Positions 5,281-46,195 of a DNA stretch of 64,000 nt are shown here, piece after piece (position 1 is the stretch's first letter; each line of letters starts with the position of its first letter). The notes beneath the pieces are model-generated. The model had not been told where the DNA came from and ran no database searches. It saw only the letters and a program-made list of their open reading frames with translations. The stretch is from Parcubacteria bacterium C7867-006. GTDB lineage: Bacteria; Patescibacteriota; Minisyncoccia; Phycocordibacterales; DATDWN01. Location: contig LFCP01000004.1 in assembly GCA_001189155.1 (NCBI GenBank), positions 133,618 to 197,617 on the forward strand. Direction: 5' to 3'. The position numbers and the translations under genes were made by a program.

Positions 5281-5913
5281 ATGAAAATTACTAAACTAGG
5301 ACACTGTTGTTTACTCATAGAAACCAAAGGTAAAATAATTCTTACTGACCCAGGGAGTTATACCGTAGAAGCTCATTCTACTCTCGAAAATATTGACTAC
5401 ATTCTGTTTACACACGAGCACCAAGATCATTATCATATCGACTCTTTGAAAGTCATTATCAGAAACAACCCGAATGCTCTAGTATTTTCAAATAGTTCCG
5501 TGAGTGAACTATTAACTCAAGAAGGAATACCACACACTAAAATCAATCATGATCAGGATTTTGACCTAGGAGGTGTTCCAGTTCTAGGTTTTGGAGAGAA
5601 GCATGCACAGATGCATAGCTCAATTCCACCCTCATCAAATCTTGGATTTTTTATTGATAACAAACTCTGGTACCCAGGTGATGCATTCACTAACCCAGAA
5701 CGACCAGTTGAAGTTTTAGCCCTTCCCGTCTCTGGACCTTGGATGAAACTTAGTGAAGCTATTGATTATGCTCTTTTACTCAAACCAAAATTAGCTTTTC
5801 CCGTACATGACGGCACAAGATTTGGTTCTGCTCATGTTCTTCCTGGTAAGGTTCTTACTCAAAATGGAATTGAATTTGTTGTTATGATAGAAGGTGATGC
5901 TAAAGAATTCTAA
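5281..5913 (+). CDS. MBL-fold metallo-hydrolase
   Basis: Contains the HEHQDHYH (HxHxDH) motif. The start was moved to ATG 5281 (MKITKLGHCC), preceded by TGtTATTAT and 6 nt. The upstream GTG extension in the ORF track has no support. Confidence 0.8.
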   Translation: MKITKLGHCCLLIETKGKIILTDPGSYTVEAHSTLENIDYILFTHEHQDHYHIDSLKVIIRNNPNALVFSNSSVSELLTQEGIPHTKINHDQDFDLGGVPVLGFGEKHAQMHSSIPPSSNLGFFIDNKLWYPGDAFTNPERPVEVLALPVSGPWMKLSEAIDYALLLKPKLAFPVHDGTRFGSAHVLPGKVLTQNGIEFVVMIEGDAKEF

Positions 5914-6804: not shown

Positions 6805-7188
6805 CTACGTGAGAAGGCGCAAGAGCTTCCTCAAACCATCGCGAAACCTCCTGCGAGTCATCCGGTCGACCGAGGTGAGTTCCTCGGGAAGTATCGTTCC
6901 GCTCACCCTCGACGAAAACGAAAAACCATGAATCCCCAGGAACCGTTCAACAGCAATGATCACTGAACGACGACACGAGCCAAGGAGTGGGTAGACCTCG
7001 ATGATCATCTTCACCTCATCCTTGGTCAGACCCTTTGCGACTCGGTAGGGACTGAAGAACATGTGAAGCACTCCAGCCTCCTTCTTGGAGAGCCGATAGC
7101 GCTTCCTGTAGCGATCCAGAACACCGTCTTGCGCGTTCCGGAGTCTTGCTTCCGAAAATTTCTTCAACTTGATCACTCGCTCCTCCAT
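6805..7188 (-). CDS. GC-rich ORFan (second gene of a two-gene cassette)
   Basis: 127 aa. Its ATG lies 1 nt after the TAG of the upstream ORF (translational coupling). The composition is far more G+C-rich than the flanks. No family recognised. Confidence 0.55.
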   Translation of the reverse strand: MEERVIKLKKFSEARLRNAQDGVLDRYRKRYRLSKKEAGVLHMFFSPYRVAKGLTKDEVKMIIEVYPLLGSCRRSVIIAVERFLGIHGFSFSSRVSGTILPEELTSVDRMTRRRFRDGLRKLLRLLT

Positions 7189-27988: not shown

Positions 27989-28109
27989 TGGTGCCGGAGG
28001 AGGGACTCGAGTCTTACAGACTCAGTACTCCAATTGGATATTTTTTCAAAATATCTCAATCGGGTTTCGAGTCCTCACGAAAGTCAAAACATGACTTTCT
28101 CTCCGGCAT
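27989..28109 (-). ncRNA. tRNA-Leu-linked tRNA-like element, copy Z (complete: 5' acceptor strand, H1, split T-arm P1, P2, P3, 3' acceptor strand and CCA)
   Basis: It starts with GCCGGAG, identical to the tRNA-Leu(CAA) acceptor, and ends with TCGAGTCCCTCCTCCGGCACCA; 18 nt of that end are identical to the tRNA 3' end. It does not fold as a cloverleaf and has no D or anticodon arm. It is homologous to copies X and Y, with compensatory stem changes. Confidence 0.4.
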
Positions 28110-30419: not shown

Positions 30420-30626
30420 TCAGAATTCGAAGATTGGACGCGGGATGAGGATCTGCTCTGTTCCAGCGACCCTCATAGAGATGTGCTTTTCACCACCACA
30501 GTGTCGAAAGACGACAACACCGCGAGTGTTGTCTGGGTCGTTCTGCACATAAACGACAGTGCAGTTGTTGACCTTGTCACCAACTTGAAGCGAGCTCCAC
30601 TGATCGCTGGACATCTCGTTAGACAT
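30420..30626 (-). CDS. GC-rich ORFan cassette
   Basis: The start is set at ATG 30626 (MSNEMSSDQW) with GGAGG 5 nt upstream. The promoter is TTGACT-N17-TAACAT. 68 aa, no family recognised. Confidence 0.5.
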   Translation of the reverse strand: MSNEMSSDQWSSLQVGDKVNNCTVVYVQNDPDNTRGVVVFRHCGGEKHISMRVAGTEQILIPRPIFEF

Positions 30627-30710
30627 CGCGGCCTCCAAAATTGTTCCAACTATTATGTTAGTTCTAAAAAAGTTACTAGTCAACAAAAATCCCCTTGCGG
30701 GGAATCTTTG

Positions 30711-36558: not shown

Positions 36559-38085
36559 ATGCAAACAACAAAAACAATAGAAGCGAAAGCTACGGTAGAA
36601 CGATCACCTGTGGTAGCAATAATGGGTCACATAGACCATGGTAAGTCCACTCTCCTTTCATATATAAGAAAAAGTAAAGAACCTCTCAACGAAGCTGGCG
36701 GAATCACTCAGCATATTTCTGCATACGAAGTTGAACACGAAACAAAAGAAGGTAAAAAACAAACCATTACTTTTATAGATACACCGGGACACGAGGCTTT
36801 TGGTGGTATTAGAAAAAGAGGGGCTTCTGTTGCAGATGTGGCTGTTTTGGTTGTTTCTGCTGAAGATGGAGTAAAACCTCAAACCATAGAAGCTCTAAAC
36901 TCAATAAAAGACAGTCACACTCCATATGTTGTTGCTATAAATAAAATAGATAAACCAGAAGCAAACATAGATAGAACAAAACAAAGTCTAGCTGAAAATG
37001 AAATCTATGTGGAAGGTTGGGGTGGAGATATTCCTGTTGTTGCTTTGTCAGCAAAAACAGGAGAAGGAGTTCCAGAACTTCTAGATATGATAATTCTAGT
37101 TGCAGAACTAGAAAATCTAACTGGAGACAGAAACACTCTAGCAGAGGGTATTGTTATAGAGAGCAACAGAGATACAAAAAAAGGTATTACGGCAACTTGT
37201 ATAATAAAAAATGGATCAATGGAAAAAGGTATGTTTATTGTCAGTGGAGTTGCTATTGCCCCAGTCAGAATAATGGAAAACTATCTTGGAAAACAGATAG
37301 ACAAAGCTTCTTTCTCTAGCCCAATAAGAATTATCGGCTGGGATGAACTACCTATTGTGGGAAATAGATTCCAAGTTTTTGACGACAGAAACAAAGCAAG
37401 GGAAGCTGTTGAAGCAGAAAAAGAAAAAATCGCAAATAAAAAATCTGCAGAAAATAGTCCTGAAAACTTTAGTAATGAAATAATCATAATACCTGTTTTG
37501 GTTAAAGCAGATACAGGAAGTAGTCTTGAAGCTGCAATAAATCAAATCAAAAAACTGGGTACTGAAACAGTAAAACCTCAAGTTGTTGCCTCTGGTATTG
37601 GAACCATATCAGAAAATGATATTCGACTAGCGAGTGGAACAGAGAAAGCTGTAATCATAGGCTTTAATGTAAAAGTAGACTCCCCTGCAAAAAACCTTGC
37701 AGAAAGAAGCGAAATAGAAATAAAGACTTTTGATATTATCTACAAAATGACAGAGTGGTTAGAAGAATTAATAAAAACAAAAACTCCAAAAATAAAAGTA
37801 GAAGAAATCACTGGTAGAGCAAAAGTACTAAAAGTATTTAGTAAATTAAAAGATAAACAAATTCTTGGTGGAAGAGTCGAAACAGGAAAAATAACTCTCG
37901 GATCACAAGTAAAAATAAAAAGGCGAGATTCTGAAATAGGTGAAGGAAAAGTTAGAGAACTTCAGCAACAAAAAAATGCTACTGAAGAAGTCCGTGAAGG
38001 AAGTGAATTTGGAGCGATGATTGTCTCAAATATAGAGATAGCTCCTGGAGACCACATAGAATGCATAATAGTAACAGAACAATAA
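36559..38085 (+). CDS. infB: Translation initiation factor IF-2 (short form)
   Basis: GHIDHGKST, DTPGHEAF and NKID. Confidence 0.9.
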   Translation: MQTTKTIEAKATVERSPVVAIMGHIDHGKSTLLSYIRKSKEPLNEAGGITQHISAYEVEHETKEGKKQTITFIDTPGHEAFGGIRKRGASVADVAVLVVSAEDGVKPQTIEALNSIKDSHTPYVVAINKIDKPEANIDRTKQSLAENEIYVEGWGGDIPVVALSAKTGEGVPELLDMIILVAELENLTGDRNTLAEGIVIESNRDTKKGITATCIIKNGSMEKGMFIVSGVAIAPVRIMENYLGKQIDKASFSSPIRIIGWDELPIVGNRFQVFDDRNKAREAVEAEKEKIANKKSAENSPENFSNEIIIIPVLVKADTGSSLEAAINQIKKLGTETVKPQVVASGIGTISENDIRLASGTEKAVIIGFNVKVDSPAKNLAERSEIEIKTFDIIYKMTEWLEELIKTKTPKIKVEEITGRAKVLKVFSKLKDKQILGGRVETGKITLGSQVKIKRRDSEIGEGKVRELQQQKNATEEVREGSEFGAMIVSNIEIAPGDHIECIIVTEQ

Positions 38086-38086
38086 T

Positions 38087-38416
38087 ATGAGCACACGAGA
38101 TGATAGAATAAAAGAAATATTAAGAGACTTGGGAGCACGTTTTTTGCTTATAAATGGAAATGGTTCATCACTTATTACTGTTACAAATGTAGAATTAACA
38201 AGTCGTGGTAAAAATGCTACTATCTTCTTTACAGTCTTTCCAGTTGAATTTGAAAAGACCGCACTTGAGTTCGCAAAGAGAAAACGTAGTGAATTCAAGG
38301 AGTTTGTAATGGATAATTCAAAATTAGGTCGTATTCCTCAACTTGATTTTGAAATAGATACAGGAGAAAAAAATAGACAAAAAATTGACTCTCTCCTTGG
38401 TCAGCAAATAAAATAA
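38087..38416 (+). CDS. rbfA: Ribosome-binding factor A
   Basis: Positioned directly after infB. Contains RIKEILRD...ITVTNVELTSRGKNATIFF. Confidence 0.65.
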   Translation: MSTRDDRIKEILRDLGARFLLINGNGSSLITVTNVELTSRGKNATIFFTVFPVEFEKTALEFAKRKRSEFKEFVMDNSKLGRIPQLDFEIDTGEKNRQKIDSLLGQQIK

Positions 38417-38488
38417 GGCGTAGTGGCCAAGTGGTAAGGCAAAGATCTGCAAAATCTTTATACGGCGGTTCGATTCCGCCCTACGCCT
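38417..38488 (+). tRNA. tRNA-Cys (anticodon GCA)
   Basis: Acceptor GGCGTAG/CTACGCC and anticodon loop CTGCAAA. Starts directly after the rbfA stop. Confidence 0.9.
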
Positions 38489-38549
38489 CCCGAAAAAAGC
38501 AAAGCTTTTTAGCGGAATTGGGCCAATTTAGGTCATTCAAATAAATATT

Positions 38550-38634
38550 GCCCGGATGGCGGAACTGGTATACGCGCACGACTTAAAATCGTGTCTCGAA
38601 AGGGATGTGGGTTCGATTCCCACTCTGGGCACCA
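38550..38634 (+). tRNA. tRNA-Leu (anticodon TAA), CCA encoded
   Basis: Acceptor GCCCGGA/TCTGGGC, anticodon loop CTTAAAA and a long variable arm. Confidence 0.9.
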
Positions 38635-38654
38635 GAAGAAAAACGGAGTTTTTT

Positions 38655-38775
38655 GAGTGGGAATCGAACAGATTTCCGGTTTACAAATTCAATAGAATTT
38701 GTCGGAAATTTGCGTTTTTAATTTTATTGAGTGGCGACGAAATAAAATTAAAAAAGATTACCCCACTCTGGGCAC
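38655..38775 (+). repeat. Split copy of the tRNA-Leu(TAA) T-arm and 3' end (element W): GAGTGGGAATCGAA-[two hairpins]-GATTACCCCACTCTGGGCAC
   Basis: Its ends reproduce GTGGG TTCGATT CCCAC TCTGGGCA of the adjacent tRNA. The interior holds the hairpins GATTTCCGG..CCGGAAATT-like and TTTTTAATTTTATT/AATAAAATTAAAAA. Confidence 0.5.
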
Positions 38776-38811
38776 AATAAAACTCCGTAAGGAGTTTTAT
38801 TGTGCCCAGAG
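38766..38811. repeat. 21-bp perfect inverted repeat CTCTGGGCACAATAAAACTCC-GTAA-GGAGTTTTATTGTGCCCAGAG
   Basis: It joins the 3' acceptor-like end of W, a terminator core, and the 5' acceptor-like start of X. Confidence 0.85.
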
Positions 38812-38929
38812 AGTAAAGCTATGTTATAATTTTACGTTTGGAATCGAAGCCCGATTGAGATTTTTTATGATTTTAAGAAACAAAAAATCCAATTAGGGTA
38901 CTGATCCTGTAAGGATCGAATACCCAAAC
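38802..38929 (+). ncRNA. tRNA-Leu-linked tRNA-like element, copy X (lacks a 3' acceptor strand)
   Basis: GCCCAGAG start, H1 GTAAA..TTTAC, P1 GTTTGG/CCAAAC, TCGAAGCC, P2 GATTTTTT/AAAAAATC, GTACTGA, and P3 GATCC-TGTAA-GGATC (38903-38917). Confidence 0.4.
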
Positions 38930-38933
38930 TTTG

Positions 38934-39006
38934 TGCACCCACCAGGGATCGAACCTGGGACCTTATCCTTAAGAGGGATCTGCTCTACCAGCTGAGCTAT
39001 AGGTGC
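38934..39006 (-). tRNA. tRNA-Lys (anticodon CTT)
   Basis: Acceptor GCACCTA/TGGGTGC (one G-U pair), anticodon loop CTCTTAA and T-loop TTCGATC. Confidence 0.85.
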
Positions 39007-39084
39007 AATTCGTACATATTACCTGATATTTATGGTAATTTCAATATTTTTAAGAATATGTTATAGTTCTCGTGTGATAAATAC

Positions 39085-39165
39085 GGGCAAGTGGCGGAAT
39101 TGGTATACGCGCTAGTCTTAGGAACTAGTTCCTCACGGATTGGGAGTTCGAGTCTCCCCTTGCCC
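39085..39165 (+). tRNA. tRNA-Leu (anticodon TAG)
   Basis: Acceptor GGGCAAG/CTTGCCC and anticodon loop CTTAGGA. A terminator AAACACC-GAAA-GGTGTTT follows. Confidence 0.9.
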
Positions 39166-39199
39166 ACAAACAACAAACACCGAAAGGTGTTTTTGTTTT

Positions 39200-39328
39200 G
39201 GGACAAGGAGAAAAGTCTGGGAGACTTTTCGTGGAGACTCGAAGCCTGTTTGAGATATTTTGGGAGTTATGAAATTACGAACAAAAATATCCAAACATGG
39301 GTACTGATCCTGTAAGGATCGAGTCTCT
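39200..39328 (+). ncRNA. tRNA-Leu-linked tRNA-like element, copy Y
   Basis: GGGACAAGG start, H1 AAAAGTC-TGGGA-GACTTTT, P1 GGAGAC/GTCTC, TCGAAGCC, P2 GATATTTT/AAAATATC, GTACTGA, and P3 GATCC-TGTAA-GGATC (39306-39320). Confidence 0.4.
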
Positions 39329-39375
39329 AATGAAAATTTTGAGTCGCGGACGAGTCTCCTAAAAATGGAACTCAT

Positions 39376-39444
39376 GTACAGAAACTGTAAGTTTCGAGAT
39401 TCTCCCCTTGCTAATTATTCCTGACCGAGTCTCCCCTTACCCCC
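39376..39444 (+). repeat. Partial second element (P3 GAAAC-TGTAA-GTTTC plus a tRNA-3'-end-like CGAGATTCTCCCCTTGCTA) and a third tRNA-3'-end-like copy (CCGAGTCTCCCCTTACCCC)
   Basis: Compare with the tRNA-Leu(TAG) 3' end TCGAGTCTCCCCTTGCCCA. Confidence 0.55.
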
Positions 39445-39448
39445 CCAC

Positions 39449-39477
39449 TTGACAGATACCACATAATGTATTACTGT
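39449..39477 (+). promoter_or_regulatory. TTGACA-N17-TACTGT promoter-like sequence for the GC-rich ORF 39495
   Basis: It starts 5 nt after the last tRNA-3'-end-like copy. Confidence 0.4.
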
Positions 39478-39494
39478 ACAACGCAGGAGCACCT

Positions 39495-39707
39495 ATGACA
39501 CACAACGAGATTGTCACTCTGATGAGGAGCAGTCGCTCTCCAGAGGAGTGGAAAAGCAATGAGGAGAGAGTGAAAGCTCACTTCTCTGGAAGTCTACCCT
39601 CTTTCTGGTACGGACTGATCGTTCAGTCCGAGGTGGCCAAGAAAACAAAAGCTTCATGGCCAAAACCACGACCCACACAACCCAAACGGCCGAGCCTGTG
39701 CCGCTGA
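39495..39707 (+). CDS. GC-rich ORFan cassette
   Basis: 70 aa. AGGAG lies 6 nt before the ATG, and a GC hairpin plus T-run lies after the stop. Confidence 0.5.
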   Translation: MTHNEIVTLMRSSRSPEEWKSNEERVKAHFSGSLPSFWYGLIVQSEVAKKTKASWPKPRPTQPKRPSLCR

Positions 39708-39805
39708 CACACCGAGCCGCCGAGTTCCGAGAGGAACCCGGCGCTTTCTTATTTTTTTGAATAAACAAAAACCACTTGTAAAAGTGGTTTTTGTTTATTC
39801 AACTA

Positions 39806-39955
39806 CTATATAACTTTCTCACCCCTAATTACTCTGATTAGAATTACTATAATAGCAATCACAAGCAATACATTTATAAAACCTCCTATTGTATGTGCTG
39901 TGACAACACCAAGCAACCATAGTATGAGTAATATAACCGCAATTGTGGTTAACAT
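39806..39955 (-). CDS. lmo0937-family small membrane protein (49 aa)
   Basis: MLTTIAVILLILWLLGVVTAHTIGGFINVLLVIAIIVILIRVIRG matches that family pattern. Below the ORF-track cutoff. Confidence 0.6.
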   Translation of the reverse strand: MLTTIAVILLILWLLGVVTAHTIGGFINVLLVIAIIVILIRVIRGEKVI

Positions 39956-39958
39956 ATA

Positions 39959-40603
39959 CTATTGATTAGTATGAAATGTTGAAGGCCAAGTAATACTCTC
40001 ATTACCTAAACTGTCTCTAACATAAACAATATAATAATATGTTGTATTAGGACTAAGATTAGTTAAAGATGTTGAATGTGAAGACTGTAGATTTGTATCT
40101 ACTAGAACACTAGACCCGCCAATAGTAACTTTAGTTGTCTGACTACCTTCAATCATTGAAAGTGGTGATGTTCCGTAATAAAGAACTGATGAAGAATTCT
40201 CATCTGTATTCCAACTAAGATTGGCCCCAGTATTTGAGACATTTACATTAACTGAATATATAAAAGGAGAAGTATTATCACCATTCATTTGGTTGTTTAT
40301 AGCAGCCAAAGTTATTGGACCAACACGACCAACAGTGGCTATTCCATTTCTTGCCTGAAAGTTAGAAACTGCTGAAGTAGTTAGAGTTCCGAAATACCCA
40401 GTAACTAGACCTTGAGGATAGATTGTTGCATCTTTAGCAAGAAAAGTTTGGAGAAGAGAAACATCTGCTCCAGACATACCTTGCTGTAACTGTCTGGTTA
40501 ACATTTCAGCAGAAGCTATAACTGGACTACCAGCTAAAACTAGAGAACTTATAATTATACTCGCACCGAAAACATACTGAACAAAACTTTTAATATTTGT
40601 CAT
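39959..40603 (-). CDS. Secreted protein with a peptidoglycan-binding (PG_binding_1-like) domain and an FN3-like domain
   Basis: The start is set at ATG 40603 (signal-like MTNIKSF..ASA). Contains GADVSLLQTFLA..GYFGTLTTSAVSNFQ, and LSWNTDE...LSPNTTYYY. Confidence 0.6.
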   Translation of the reverse strand: MTNIKSFVQYVFGASIIISSLVLAGSPVIASAEMLTRQLQQGMSGADVSLLQTFLAKDATIYPQGLVTGYFGTLTTSAVSNFQARNGIATVGRVGPITLAAINNQMNGDNTSPFIYSVNVNVSNTGANLSWNTDENSSSVLYYGTSPLSMIEGSQTTKVTIGGSSVLVDTNLQSSHSTSLTNLSPNTTYYYIVYVRDSLGNESITWPSTFHTNQ

Positions 40604-43502: not shown

Positions 43503-44834
43503 ATGTCTGGACTAACGATGCTGTCGCTCGTCTTGACGGCACTGTTTCTCCTCTTCGCATTCTACCAGTCGAGGCCGAGCAAAACAGCCAAACCTGAAGA
43601 AGGACAAGAGAAGAAGTCGTCAAACGAACGACACAACCTTTGGTATCACCTGGGGTTCGTCGATGACACACCGAACCTGATTCGTCAGGTCGTCGCTGGA
43701 AGCGCAAAAAGCGGCCGGCCGATCAGGTACTTTGGGAACCTGCACGACGGGGTTATTGATGAGGCCACTGGCATCATTACATCCAACCCTAACCCACCCC
43801 TCCTTTCGGAGGGTTGGTTCCTGAATTTGATCAGGAAACACTTCGGCAAACGCTGGTGTCGCATTCCGATCATCCAGCATGTGAAGCCTTTGACGATTGA
43901 CCGGGTGGTCAGCAAGGACACCAAGTCAACTGTCAACGAACTCTCCGATGAACTTGACGCCTCAACAGTCGTCAAGGAAGGTCTCTACCGACTGATTCTT
44001 CGCCCAACCCTTCACAAGGATGTTGACGCGAAGAACAACATCCGGTTTAGCGTAATCAGTTACGCTGTTCTGGAAGTGTTCGACGCCAAACCGGCGTTCA
44101 ACATCTACCCGGACAGCTACTTGATCACTGTCAGCAAACTGATCTCTGCTTATCTTTCGAAGAATACCTTCAAACTTTCGTACGATGAGTACAAAGAGCG
44201 AGGGAACTCCTTCGAAAAAGAGCAGATCGATGAGTTGAACGGCGTGCTTCTCAGTCTGGGAATTCGGTGCAAGGAACTTCGTATGGGCGACCCTGAACTC
44301 AACAAGAGTGTTCAGGAAAGCCTTGAAAAAGAAGCCAAGGCTGAACAAGAAGCCAAGGCTCAGAAACGAAAGGGTCAGGGCCAAAAAGACTACGATACTC
44401 TCGTGTCCGAAGGCCAGTCCCAAGCAATCAGGAATCTGGCTGCCGCCAAGGCATCCAGGTTCTCTGAACTCATCAACCTCTACAAGAACGAAGGCTTGAC
44501 TGGGTCTGAAGCAGTGGACAGAGCAAATGCAATGATCTCAGCCGAGTTCAACGCAGATGCTGTTCGACAGCTTCAAGGAACCTACGTCGCTTCAGGTAAC
44601 GGCGTTCAACTTGCCGTTATGGAGAGAAGACCAAGTGCAACTACAAGTTCGACTACCGAAGCTGCAGCTCAAGCAGCGCCTACTGGCAGTCAGTCAGTGG
44701 GCCAGGCCTCGGCTCAACCAGCTCAACCTGTGGCTCAAAAGCCTATGGCTCCGAGCACAACCCAGGCTGGTCAGACTCCGCATCAGAATCAAGGCAGGGG
44801 TCACAAAGACAAGGGCCGCCGCAACAAGAAATAA
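43503..44834 (+). CDS. GC-rich membrane-anchored protein with an SPFH/band-7-like core and a low-complexity Ala/Gln/Pro/Thr tail
   Basis: N-terminal TM helix. LGIRCKELRMGDPELNKSVQESLEKEAKAEQEAKAQ and downstream GQSQAIRNLAAAKA resemble SPFH C-terminal blocks. Line 43561-43620 is 30/60 G+C. Confidence 0.45.
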   Translation: MSGLTMLSLVLTALFLLFAFYQSRPSKTAKPEEGQEKKSSNERHNLWYHLGFVDDTPNLIRQVVAGSAKSGRPIRYFGNLHDGVIDEATGIITSNPNPPLLSEGWFLNLIRKHFGKRWCRIPIIQHVKPLTIDRVVSKDTKSTVNELSDELDASTVVKEGLYRLILRPTLHKDVDAKNNIRFSVISYAVLEVFDAKPAFNIYPDSYLITVSKLISAYLSKNTFKLSYDEYKERGNSFEKEQIDELNGVLLSLGIRCKELRMGDPELNKSVQESLEKEAKAEQEAKAQKRKGQGQKDYDTLVSEGQSQAIRNLAAAKASRFSELINLYKNEGLTGSEAVDRANAMISAEFNADAVRQLQGTYVASGNGVQLAVMERRPSATTSSTTEAAAQAAPTGSQSVGQASAQPAQPVAQKPMAPSTTQAGQTPHQNQGRGHKDKGRRNKK

Positions 44835-44949
44835 ACGGTCCAACACCATCGTTGCGGTCATTGCGATCATCACGCTGATTATCGCGAAGATCGCAACTAG
44901 CGTCTTCCACTTTCTGTCGGAGATTGGTCTTTGGTTCAAAGCGGAAGCT

Positions 44950-45825
44950 ATGAACTACTATCAAACTCCCAGTGGTGGACTGATTAGCAAGGTAATACTG
45001 GTGGTTCTCCCGGTTGCATCATTTGCGCTTGCGTACGTGATGTATCGGAGGAACCATCCAACTTCTCCGAGGTTCAAATATCGTAGTAGCCGAAGTTCGA
45101 AAGACTTCGCCGCTGCTGTGATGATGCCGTTTGGCCTGGCCATCGGCGTCGGAATCCTCTGGGGAGTTGTGTACTTCCTGGCTTGGGGGCCTGGAATTCT
45201 GCACTACTTCTCTTTCCCTATCTGGGGAAAAGCGGAAGCTAGGATGAGCACTCCAACCAACAGTGGCTTCGTCGACAAAAACGAAGTCCACCGTCGGACG
45301 GGAGAGTTCTGGTATTCCAACTTGCCACCGACCGAGGCCAAGGAGATGCTCGACATCGCCACGGAAGAGTCACATTTCCAGCAATTCAACACTGATGGGA
45401 GTGTCTTCACCGGCGTGGACGACCCAGCCGACACGGGCGTGATGCAAATCAACGTCCGTGAGAACCAGAAAGACCTGATAGCGTGGGGGCTCAACGTCAA
45501 CACTCTCGAAGGAAATCTGGAAGCGGCCAAAAGGCTTCGTCAGAAATACGGCACGAAGCCTTGGCAACGGACGGTGGATAAAATCAAAAACCGTCCGTCG
45601 CAGATAATCACCATCAAGGTGCCAAAGGAAGGTCGCAGTGAAAGGTTTACCCCCGACGGCAGATTCTGCCAGGGTCAAACCGATCTTCCAGTCACCGTAT
45701 GGGACGACAAAGGTAGGAGCCACCCAATGACTCCGACCAGCGTTCCAACTGTTCCGTCGTTGTGGTATGAGTACTCCACTCCAAGTGGAGGCTCACTCCC
45801 AACGATCACCATTTCATGCAGGTAA
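44950..45825 (+). CDS. GC-rich membrane-anchored lytic transglycosylase (SLT-domain) protein
   Basis: Catalytic block TEESHFQQFN and GVMQINV. The start is set at the first ATG after the upstream stop. The ORF-track start 44557 would overlap the upstream gene by 278 nt. Confidence 0.6.
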   Translation: MNYYQTPSGGLISKVILVVLPVASFALAYVMYRRNHPTSPRFKYRSSRSSKDFAAAVMMPFGLAIGVGILWGVVYFLAWGPGILHYFSFPIWGKAEARMSTPTNSGFVDKNEVHRRTGEFWYSNLPPTEAKEMLDIATEESHFQQFNTDGSVFTGVDDPADTGVMQINVRENQKDLIAWGLNVNTLEGNLEAAKRLRQKYGTKPWQRTVDKIKNRPSQIITIKVPKEGRSERFTPDGRFCQGQTDLPVTVWDDKGRSHPMTPTSVPTVPSLWYEYSTPSGGSLPTITISCR

Positions 45826-45831
45826 CGCAAA

Positions 45832-45866
45832 GCGCGGAGACCCTTCGGGGCCCTCCGCGCTTTTTT
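45832..45866 (+). terminator. GCGCGGAG-N13-CTCCGCGC followed by TTTTTT
   Basis: Located 6 nt after the stop TAA at 45823-45825. Confidence 0.8.
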
Positions 45867-45886
45867 CATATCTGAATTTTGTGTTG

Positions 45887-46195
45887 TTATAGTTTTAGAA
45901 AATTCGTTGCACCTGAAGAATTTATATCAGAAGATGTTATACCGAATGTTCCCATAACAAAACGTATAATCCCAAAAACAGAAAACATAATAACCATACC
46001 TGCGATCCCCCACATTATTGCACTTCTTGACTCTCCTCTAGTTTTATCAGCAGAATTTAAATCTTGATTTAGGAAATTGAATACTCCGTAAACAAAATAC
46101 AAAAACGATACCGCAAACATTAGTAACAAAAGTGGATTGATAATCAAATCAATTACTTTGTTTAGGAAAGGTACAATAGATAATGATGAGGACAT
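45887..46195 (-). CDS. TrbC/VirB2-like (type IV secretion pilin-like) small membrane protein, paralog 6
   Basis: Two hydrophobic helices flank a polar loop with the shared ..MWGI.. motif. No signal peptide. Confidence 0.45.
   Translation of the reverse strand: MSSSLSIVPFLNKVIDLIINPLLLLMFAVSFLYFVYGVFNFLNQDLNSADKTRGESRSAIMWGIAGMVIMFSVFGIIRFVMGTFGITSSDINSSGATNFLKL

Follow-up and report, generated by a model that had tools for sequence, protein, structure and literature searches.

What are the short segments, each resembling a piece of transfer RNA (tRNA), that follow the tRNA-Leu(TAA) gene of Parcubacteria bacterium C7867-006, and how did they come to be there? The gene (38550-38634, + strand; called by ARAGORN, 59.3 bits against the Rfam tRNA model) lies in a 64,000-nucleotide stretch of contig LFCP01000004.1 (positions 133,618 to 197,617; hereafter the window), which has about 35% GC and nine tRNA genes according to ARAGORN and Rfam. 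Two segments, W and X, stand behind it. The original prediction took them for T-arm copies interrupted at the TCGAA of the T-loop and favoured a site-specific insertion or recombination process acting on tRNA-Leu-like T-loops. Site-specific insertion is still the best reading. With a probability of about 65%, we consider W and X to have arisen one after the other, each by insertion of a small structured mobile module that encodes no protein, homes to the T-loop TCGA of tRNA and transfer-messenger RNA (tmRNA) genes in Patescibacteria and duplicates its target.

The part of the gene that reappears in W and X is its 3' end, from the CGA of the T-loop to the discriminator base, which we call S. 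Between the gene and W stands an A/T-rich hairpin (GAAAAAC-GGA-GTTTTTT; 38635-38654, + strand), the counterpart of a hairpin or terminator found at this place in other copies, and also present at a W-type copy at L035 (comparison loci are designated by L numbers). W itself (38655-38775, + strand) starts GAGTGGGAATCGAAC and ends GATTACCCCACTCTGGGCAC. Its ends had been described as reproducing the T-arm and acceptor end of the tRNA, and this is correct for the 3' arm (38756-38775, + strand), a direct repeat of the 3' T-strand and acceptor strand (repeat D4). The 5' arm (38655-38669, + strand) is instead the reverse complement, S', of tRNA bases 38611-38625, at 15 of 15 positions (repeat I3); the mirrored bases comprise the T-loop, the T-stem's 3' strand and three bases at the start of the acceptor strand, the GAG of the arm being the complement of the acceptor CTC. 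The interior of about 85 nt with two hairpins was predicted correctly. RNA folding gives an end-to-end helix closing this core (family B'; 38670-38754, + strand) at a minimum free energy of -42.2 kcal/mol (z = -6.7), with hairpin A (38670-38711, + strand) carrying a CGGUUUACA...UGUCG motif and hairpin B (38715-38754, + strand) having a GA-rich tip, and relatives of the core show compensatory stem changes.

The 3' end of W is also one side of a perfect 21-bp inverted repeat (38766-38811, unstranded), whose arms, CTCTGGGCACAATAAAACTCC (38766-38786) and GGAGTTTTATTGTGCCCAGAG (38791-38811), enclose a GTAA loop. Its left side consists of the acceptor 3' strand, the trailer and the left terminator arm, and its right side of the right terminator arm and the inverse acceptor strand of X. 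X (family A; 38802-38933, + strand) continues with a hairpin, H1 (38812-38837, + strand), which separates the inverse acceptor strand from the inverse T strand, followed by the 5' strand of helix P1, TTGGAATCGAA (38838-38848, + strand; repeat I9, placed by alignment to our covariance model R1), which is the reverse complement of the T-loop and 3' T-stem of tRNA-Leu(TAA) and ends in an invariant TCGAA. The core (38849-38917, + strand) comprises P2 (38849-38899, + strand), with a bulged A and two conserved G.U pairs, a GUACUG junction and P3 (38903-38917, + strand), with the loop uGUAa; it is delimited by covariation on 117 copies. The 3' flank, GAATACCCAAACTTTG (38918-38933, + strand), is a decayed direct repeat of the tRNA 3' end and reaches the 3' end of tRNA-Lys(CTT), a convergent gene (38933-39006; ARAGORN and Rfam). 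X matches the 117-member model R1 over its full length (84.6 bits, E = 1.6e-18), in agreement with the earlier description of an element that carries all the blocks of its family, has no 3' acceptor strand and abuts tRNA-Lys; its P1 helix is absent from its minimum-energy fold. The positions first given for W, X and the inverted repeat hold. Two core types thus occupy one position relative to the T-loop TCGA, as had been noticed; they had been called unrelated, and the types are indeed distinct, but the second hairpin of W, AUUUUAUUGAGUGGCGACGAAAUAAAAU, resembles the tip of the family-A P2.

Model R1, run on the window, matched X and two further copies, Y and Z, and nothing else. Y (39200-39328, + strand; 89 bits) lies downstream of tRNA-Leu(TAG) and has an inverse acceptor strand, H1, the P1 5' strand, P2, P3 and a shortened direct repeat. 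Z (27989-28108, - strand; 80.5 bits) is a complete family-A copy downstream of tRNA-Leu(CAA) that ends ...CTCCGGCACCA; its predicted RNA fold (-48.6 kcal/mol, z = -7.1) has an acceptor-like stem, H1, and P1 around P2 and P3. Sharing between the copies far exceeds chance: the 23-mer GGTACTGATCCTGTAAGGATCGA is found twice against 0.00 expected, and the shared 5' block three times against 0.09 expected. X, Y and Z had been read as interrupted T-arm copies, a description that fails at the 5' arm. Behind tRNA-Leu(TAG) the sequence is GGAGACTCGAA, which complements TTCGAGTCTCC at 11 of 11 positions (repeat I12), and not the GGGAGTTCGA expected of a plain T-arm copy; the 5' arm is likewise a reverse complement downstream of tRNA-Leu(CAA). 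The tRNA gene remains intact, and the copies are flanking duplications. All three elements follow one plan: tRNA, hairpin or terminator, reverse complement of the acceptor 3' strand, H1, the T-loop and 3' T-stem strand in reverse complement up to a final TCGAA, P2, GUACUG, P3 with its uGUAa loop, CGA, and a direct repeat of S. On the tRNA strand S' pairs with S and forms, with H1, a minihelix-like stem of acceptor plus T stem that is capped by a family-specific core, in family A a three-way junction.

Is this fold selected? In an alignment of 117 copies (A1), in which part of the sequence invariance, but not the covarying positions, is set by the search pattern, P1, P2 and P3 are paired in 92.7% of cells compared with 79.9% in shuffles, and double-sided changes occur at 21 pairs. 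The covariation score was 0.352 against 0.123 for shuffled alignments, a value reached by 0 of 500 shuffles, and slid controls gave 0.04-0.09. In P2, G.U combinations outnumber A.C combinations by 198 to 7, indicating that the fold is read on the tRNA strand, either as RNA or as that single DNA strand. The H1 inserts examined, 28 of 28, all fold into hairpins with 6 or more base pairs, and their sequences are diverse. The P2 tip is usually UGAG-(short stem)-CGAAA with a tandem G.A motif (A1 columns 36-74; for example, L033 and L094) and resembles hammerhead positions 7-15.1 or a kink-turn-like element; Z has no such tip, and hairpin B of W and the family-B hairpins contain similar GA-rich motifs (GUGACGACGAG). 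A hammerhead ribozyme was rejected, as the essential C3 and G5 are absent despite the fit to positions 7-15.1 and many copies, Z included, are tipless. Searches of window positions 38000-40000 against Rfam 15 returned no match besides the tRNAs at E values up to 10, and at the gathering score only tRNAs were found in the window and in 15 loci holding A, B or C cores; a known self-cleaving ribozyme, group I or II intron or riboswitch was set aside for want of any relevant match.

A degenerate pattern for the X/Y/Z core, applied to species-representative genomes and to metagenome contigs, found family A at no fewer than 117 genome loci and on at least 120 metagenome contigs, both counts being lower bounds. 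The genome loci listed are all from metagenome-assembled genomes (MAGs) of Patescibacteria (the Candidate Phyla Radiation) where the record names a taxon, nine titles saying only 'bacterium', and include Paceibacterota, Zambryski-, Kaiser-, Taylor-, Vogel-, Ryan- and Gottesmanbacteria and Minisyncoccia. No true copy turned up in 2.9 million viral contigs, the searches giving zero matches or chance ones inside coding regions, and an origin as a phage or plasmid attP was rejected on these grounds. ARAGORN places 86 of the 121 genome copies listed no more than 400 nt downstream of a tRNA or tmRNA gene on the same strand (median 66 nt), and the same holds for 89 of the 113 metagenome copies listed that have enough upstream sequence; about 75% of the testable copies listed thus follow a tRNA or tmRNA, and the remainder are mostly explained by contig ends, arrays or tRNAs missed by ARAGORN. 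More than 30 tRNA species are used, as is tmRNA, so the element is not specific to tRNA-Leu, and the restriction to tRNA-Leu-like T-loops in the original prediction falls away. tmRNA genes have a T-arm and an acceptor as tRNAs do, and family-A copies follow tmRNA 3' ends at L100 (about 2840-2930), at L115 (about 5330-5420, + strand) and at one metagenome locus. Among 81 copies, 39 repeat tRNA positions 59-73 without mismatch and 10 more with one mismatch. In these 49 well-preserved copies the repeat ends 0-1 nt past the discriminator base in 28 and 10-56 nt further in 10, which are tandem or recent cases; the target duplication measures about 18-19 nt at tRNAs and can reach 56 nt where copies are tandem or recent. 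A full-text literature search found no published description of these modules. At L029 (about 6990-7050), L240, L307, L309, L283 and L255, the A cores are preceded by tRNA-like 3' ends that follow long structured inserts (for example, ...caccacgcgctccgcgcgtgcgaagtgggttcg...) and in which ARAGORN calls no tRNA. These are probably intron-containing tRNA genes of the kind reported in Patescibacteria, where group I introns occupy the anticodon loop (PMC13011429).

The bracket formed by S' and S is not reserved for one core. We examined 210 tRNAs with at least 60 nt of downstream sequence, taken from the genome loci and the window, a count biased by the choice of loci for carrying an element. An A core lies within 600 nt downstream in 99, a direct repeat or inverted copy of the 3' end surrounds another core in 34, and neither core nor repeat was seen in 77, so that at least 133 of the 210 have a core, a repeat or an inverted copy; seven of the element-bearing loci come from a single MAG. 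Family B has the form TCGAAAGNCGGAGC ... GCGAGNCNGGGTCG ... and ends in (T)TGTGACCGA or CCTGACCGA, with S following in each case. W represents a sub-type of this second family, with a CGGUUUACA-hairpin-UGUCG unit and a second hairpin in the same bracket as family A, and recurs at L059, L035 (twice), L032 and L105 with compensatory changes in its stems, such as AGATTTCCG/CGGAAATTT in W compared with AGATTCACG/CGTGAATCT in L059. A third family, C, starts TCGAACNGGAAGGGGTCGGGAAA. At L091, two tandem units have the same bracket, with an A core in the first and a B core in the second. There are also composite modules in which a family-A-like P2/GUAC/P3 block is nested in a family-B core within a single bracket, at L100 (- strand, just downstream of tRNA-Thr 654-727) and at L091 (3970-4210).

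Related genomes differ in what they hold at orthologous sites, a comparison that the original prediction had proposed. The site behind tRNA-Leu(CAA) is empty at L091, L016 and L104, contains an A core in the window, L075 and L064, and a B core at L111; that behind tRNA-Trp is empty in the window, L075 and L064 and filled at L016, L083, L091, L104 and L111. Behind tRNA-Leu(TAA), L042, L049 and L052 are empty, L012, L050, L081 and L108 have an A core only, L035 has the W type only, and the window has both W and X. In L012 and L050, tRNA-Leu(TAA) is followed directly by a perfect palindrome of 23-24 nt, made of S, a terminator and the reverse complement of S, and then by the A core; their terminator sequences differ from that of the window. 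The presence of such a palindrome ahead of an A core identifies the 21-bp repeat of the window as the bracket of X, with W inserted later between this bracket and the tRNA. The order of events would have been X first and W later, at the tRNA, pushing X outward, after which the outer repeat of X decayed, and the 3' arm of W is probably a former tRNA-proximal copy that once belonged to the unit of X. The window has the terminator ATCCCCGAAAGGGGATTTTT in the tRNA-proximal position and L064 has it in the distal one; in L075 the near-identical ATCCCCAACAGGGGATTTTT, which differs in the loop, stands in both. This placement would be expected if insertion first duplicates S with the trailer and terminator, the copies diverging later. 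Comparison of loci thus establishes insertion at TCGA with preservation of the gene, a target duplication of variable length, and turnover between related genomes.

At the window's own locus, the only other contig found shows no strain polymorphism: L216 (a Logan contig from SRR2043728), an independent assembly of the same strain, is identical to the window over 36.1-38.86 kb and stops inside X, which suggests that the modules, being repeated, break short-read assemblies of Patescibacteria. The segment carrying tRNA-Lys(CTT) (38933-39084) is flipped in orientation in the window and L050 relative to L035 and L032, one end of the flipped segment falling at the decayed P1 3' strand of X, beside T-loop-like ATCGAA sequences; this suggests recombination between inverted T-loop-like repeats. 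Behind Y, three remnants of older insertions follow (39333-39444, + strand; identified by repeats D1 and D3 and by likeness to B-type ends elsewhere), of W/B type (39333-39360, + strand), A type (39374-39412, + strand) and B type (39413-39444, + strand), each retaining the 3' end of a core and part of the 3' end of tRNA-Leu(TAG).

Does a module bring its bracket with it, or is the bracket made from the target? An informative exception in this respect is L096, where an A core is placed at a GGTTCGAA motif in the native 3' end of a flavodoxin-like gene and not behind a tRNA. The native end of this gene is ...TGGGGTTCGAAAGCGTACTAA, and its C terminus, ...WGSKAY, is kept in length and pattern among homologues. 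The locus reads GGTTCGA-AAGCGTACTAA, AA, GCTT-TCGAA, core, CGAAAGCGTATTAA, flank, the bracket consisting of a 14-nt direct repeat and a short inverted copy, both of local gene sequence; the nearest cores, 93% identical, have ordinary tRNA-type arms. In a related species whose gene has no GGTTCGAA motif the site is empty. These observations indicate that the recognized motif is the T-loop consensus and that the bracket is made from the target at insertion rather than carried in, and S' is likely to be templated by the target. Contigs encoding the identical L096 protein contain either one copy or two tandem copies of the 94-nt unit, indicating that the element is active, or was recently so, in natural populations. 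A population variant of the same element, L214 (1177-1276), has an internal deletion (...ATCCAATTGGATATTTTGTAAGGAG...) that takes out two helix strands, the 3' one of P2 and the 5' one of P3.

The description of the class is well supported. Comparison of loci shows that insertion duplicates the target from the CGA of the T-loop to about the end of the gene, yielding the direct repeat S, and places the reverse-complement copy S' ahead of the core, the resulting unit having the order tRNA(...S), hairpin or terminator, S', TCGAA, core, CGA, S. The mode of movement that we offer is a hypothesis. The modules would be non-autonomous and mobilized in trans, in a replicative step resembling copy choice. 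A 3' end at or near the palindromic TCGA, generated by a nick, may be extended by copying the core from a template that TCGAA and TCGA flank on its two sides, with template switching at these 4-bp palindromes. Snap-back on the target, most easily at the terminator hairpin, would then produce both direct and inverted copies of the target. Such a copy-choice model explains the palindrome centred on the terminator and the fact that S' ends exactly at TCGAA, as well as the variable length of the duplication and the usability of any tRNA; taken alone, this mechanism is doubtful. Two others were rejected. Priming by a mature tRNA, as at a retroviral primer-binding site, is contradicted by S' running into the complement of the 3' trailer of the gene and not into TGG, the complement of CCA, and a casposase-like fixed duplication of 14-15 bp by the variation in length.

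We looked for an enzyme that might drive this process. Clustering of the open reading frames (ORFs) within 3 kb of 117 copies revealed no enriched family, the largest cluster occurring at 10 of the 117 loci, and the neighbours are housekeeping genes, encoding IF-2, RbfA, L19, RluD, RuvA/X, MiaA and similar proteins. As no gene family is enriched nearby, any enzyme must act in trans. A Pfam scan of GC-rich and unnamed ORFs of the window identified no recombinase, transposase or reverse transcriptase, and a search for S'-TCGA-S palindromes, the scars that excision of a core would leave, found none. Homing-type nucleases do occur beside tRNAs. A small GIY-YIG nuclease ORF lies inside a module at L061 (6163-6640), between tRNA-Ser(GGA) and the part comprising inverse acceptor, H1 and core; an HNH ORF lies beside tRNA-Leu(TAA) in L032, in a record partly masked with N; and a LAGLIDADG-like ORF follows tRNA-Lys in L003. 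Free-standing nucleases of this kind next to tRNAs could bear on T-loop nicking.

Several observations weigh against successive mobile insertion as we propose it. Neither a mobilizing enzyme nor an autonomous relative was found among the 237 loci listed, and no reverse transcriptase was seen in these loci; a simple scan detected no promoter for the elements themselves. H1 is always placed exactly at the junction of acceptor and T-stem, with conserved structure, which pure DNA snap-back does not predict and which points to selection on RNA or a single strand, possibly for function. L096 is the only clean insertion outside a tRNA gene, and its local inverted part extends only 4 nt beyond the constant TCGAA. 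The loops of the duplicated terminator in L075 share one orientation, which fits strand displacement with fold-back but not the version of snap-back in which target-primed reverse transcription yields a self-folding cDNA. Core similarity is 0.79 within a MAG compared with 0.71 between genomes, and the nearest neighbour comes from the same MAG for 9 of 44 copies, suggesting that many copies are old and recent bursts rare. At several tRNA sites an element persists in related genomes, a pattern compatible with a retained function as well.

Could the elements instead be working parts of the tRNAs that they follow? They may be cis-acting functional RNAs in the tRNA 3' trailer, either small RNAs scaffolded by a minihelix, excised by RNase P and RNase Z and given CCA, or riboswitch-like maturation switches in which the partner of S' is either the 3' strand of its tRNA, so that maturation is blocked, or the downstream S, in a P1 stabilized by the core; in a variant of the latter, the three-way-junction cores may sense ligands or proteins and so control the maturation of individual tRNAs through S' pairing. 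Strand-specific covariation, the conserved G.U pairs, an H1 hairpin conserved at the very point from which the D and anticodon arms of a tRNA would branch, the folding of Z into a 6-bp acceptor stem plus T stem ending in CCA, the tailoring of every copy to its own tRNA and persistence at the same tRNA across related genomes all fit this explanation. Yet orthologous sites are often empty or hold a different family, decayed remnants accumulate in arrays, and three core families are interchangeable in one bracket (L091); moreover, a T-run hairpin or terminator separates tRNA from element, no element promoter was detected, and the L096 copy stands at the end of a protein gene, in one or two tandem copies within a population. 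We judge a functional RNA improbable. The pseudogene-like reading with which the locus was first described, in which W and X are partial tRNA-Leu duplicates whose T-loops were hit by an insert or intron, accounts for ends that look like T-stem plus acceptor stem and for TCGA on both sides of the core, but not for a 5' arm that mirrors the 3' strand in reverse complement, acceptor bases and loop positions 59-60 included (I3 and I12), or for the same architecture at more than 30 other tRNA species and one protein gene. There is no D or anticodon arm, nor any tRNA call by ARAGORN or Rfam, in these segments; a tRNA gene or pseudogene (RF00005) was discarded because W, X, Y and Z have no tRNA match even at E values up to 10, and an archaeal-type T-loop intron because the tRNA-proximal 3' end already completes the tRNA. 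Taken literally, this reading is hardly credible.

There is a slim chance that the modules are attL/attR scars or miniatures of integrative elements that target tRNA genes through a tyrosine recombinase crossing over in the T-loop, perhaps entering as folded single-stranded hairpins, as do the CTX phage attP and the integron attC, with the S'/S stem mimicking a duplex target. A direct repeat from T-loop to gene end is the hallmark of such integration, tmRNA genes are used too, tandem accretion leaves the outer copies decayed, and the order S, loop, S', core, judged from the layout, would be expected from a dumbbell circle after a crossover in the T-loop. tRNA and tmRNA islands and prophages of this T-loop class similarly target the 3' part of the gene and regenerate it. 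They differ in that the modules measure only 90-250 bp, have no integrase and no cargo, use any tRNA species and add an inverted target copy and a folded core. Against the recombinase also stand the L096 bracket, made of the protein gene's own sequence and so not element-borne (a single locus), the weakness with which core relatedness follows tRNA identity (the nearest neighbour lies at the same tRNA species for 13 of 85 copies against 3.3 expected, so that cores are not locked to one tRNA), the lack of an integrase or other enriched gene within 3 kb in 117 loci and the lack of copies in the viral contigs. Integron attC sites and the CTX attP(+) hairpin share with the modules a reliance on structure over sequence, a strand-specific fold, arrays, a stem that mimics the duplex target and a spacer that forms the loop, but modules have the termini TCGAA ... 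CGA and no RYYYAAC ... GTTRRRY (R''/R') sites, lack an IntI/dif context, ORFs between units and a nearby recombinase, and build their stem from local tRNA sequence.

Successive insertion of mobile modules, our preferred explanation, invites comparison with other small elements. Short interspersed nuclear elements (SINEs), which move by target-primed reverse transcription, are likewise small and non-coding, with tRNA-related ends, machinery supplied in trans, long target duplications of variable length (14 to more than 45 nt in the modules) and truncated remnants; the modules differ in having no poly-A or other 3' tail, no linked reverse transcriptase, an inverted target copy and a bacterial host. 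No SINE-like class of element is known from bacteria. The modules might be a bacterial counterpart that parasitizes tRNA genes, transcribed along with them, released by RNase P and RNase Z together with the CCA-adding enzyme, and recopied into DNA. In that case, module ends that mimic a tRNA minihelix would invite processing by tRNA enzymes, and reverse transcription would be primed at the palindromic TCGA of any GTTCGA T-loop, with snap-back making the target copies. We regard this extension as unlikely. Miniature inverted-repeat transposable elements (MITEs) and palindrome-associated transposable elements (PATEs) derived from IS200/IS605 are also short, multicopy, non-autonomous, rich in hairpins and set beside a short motif (here TTCGA), but the inverted arms of the modules are local tRNA or gene sequence and not the element's own, their duplication has no fixed length, and, unlike IS200/IS605 PATEs, which make no target duplication, they make one, with no TnpA/TnpB partner and no related element bearing a transposase found. 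tRNA-like structures such as plant mitochondrial t-elements, mascRNA, the 3' end of the Mauriceville retroplasmid and those of viruses share the acceptor-plus-T-stem minihelix and, in some module copies, an encoded CCA, and a real tRNA is adjacent on the same strand; in the modules, by contrast, a large conserved three-way junction takes the place of the T-loop, the neighbouring tRNA has the very same stems, and the element is mobile and polymorphic.

GC-rich stretches accompany some tRNA genes of the window. Directly after the tRNA-Leu(TAG) array, positions 39445-39800 have about 50-60% GC against 35% for the genome, with a TTGACA-type promoter-like sequence, a 70-amino-acid ORF (39495-39707) that no Pfam family matches and, at 39759-39800, a terminator of 19 perfect base pairs; in L035 another GC-rich ORF occupies this place, and the site looks like a hotspot for small foreign genes. 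Downstream of tRNA-Tyr (30430-30710, - strand), a small GC-rich ORF with a promoter-like sequence lies directly past the tRNA terminator with no A, B or C module, and a comparable ORF follows the tRNA-Tyr of L083. Positions 44001-46000 form a 2-kb block with about 51% GC that looks foreign in composition and includes a 422-amino-acid ORF without a Pfam hit that overlaps an SPFH/Band-7 domain ORF (43503-44834). Foreign GC-rich cargo as a general trait of the modules was rejected, excess GC being found downstream of the element in 8% of copies compared with 5% upstream of the tRNA.

Together, these data make the modules of the window a local case of a phylum-wide and apparently undescribed class of structured insertion modules at the ends of tRNA genes. 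Patescibacteria have tiny, streamlined genomes of about 1 Mb, and modules nevertheless sit on a large share of their tRNA genes. Either way, whether mobile or functional, the modules constitute a conserved family of RNA or single-strand folds absent from Rfam and explain assembly breaks and mis-annotated intergenic regions in Patescibacteria MAGs; handles for testing come from model R1, the rule of insertion at TCGA and the polymorphism at L096. If the modules are mobile, they would represent a new route to the most conserved motif of tRNA genes, one that lets the gene survive, through a mechanism that writes inverted and direct copies derived from the target. If they are functional, they would add a phylum-wide layer of RNA structure to individual tRNAs.

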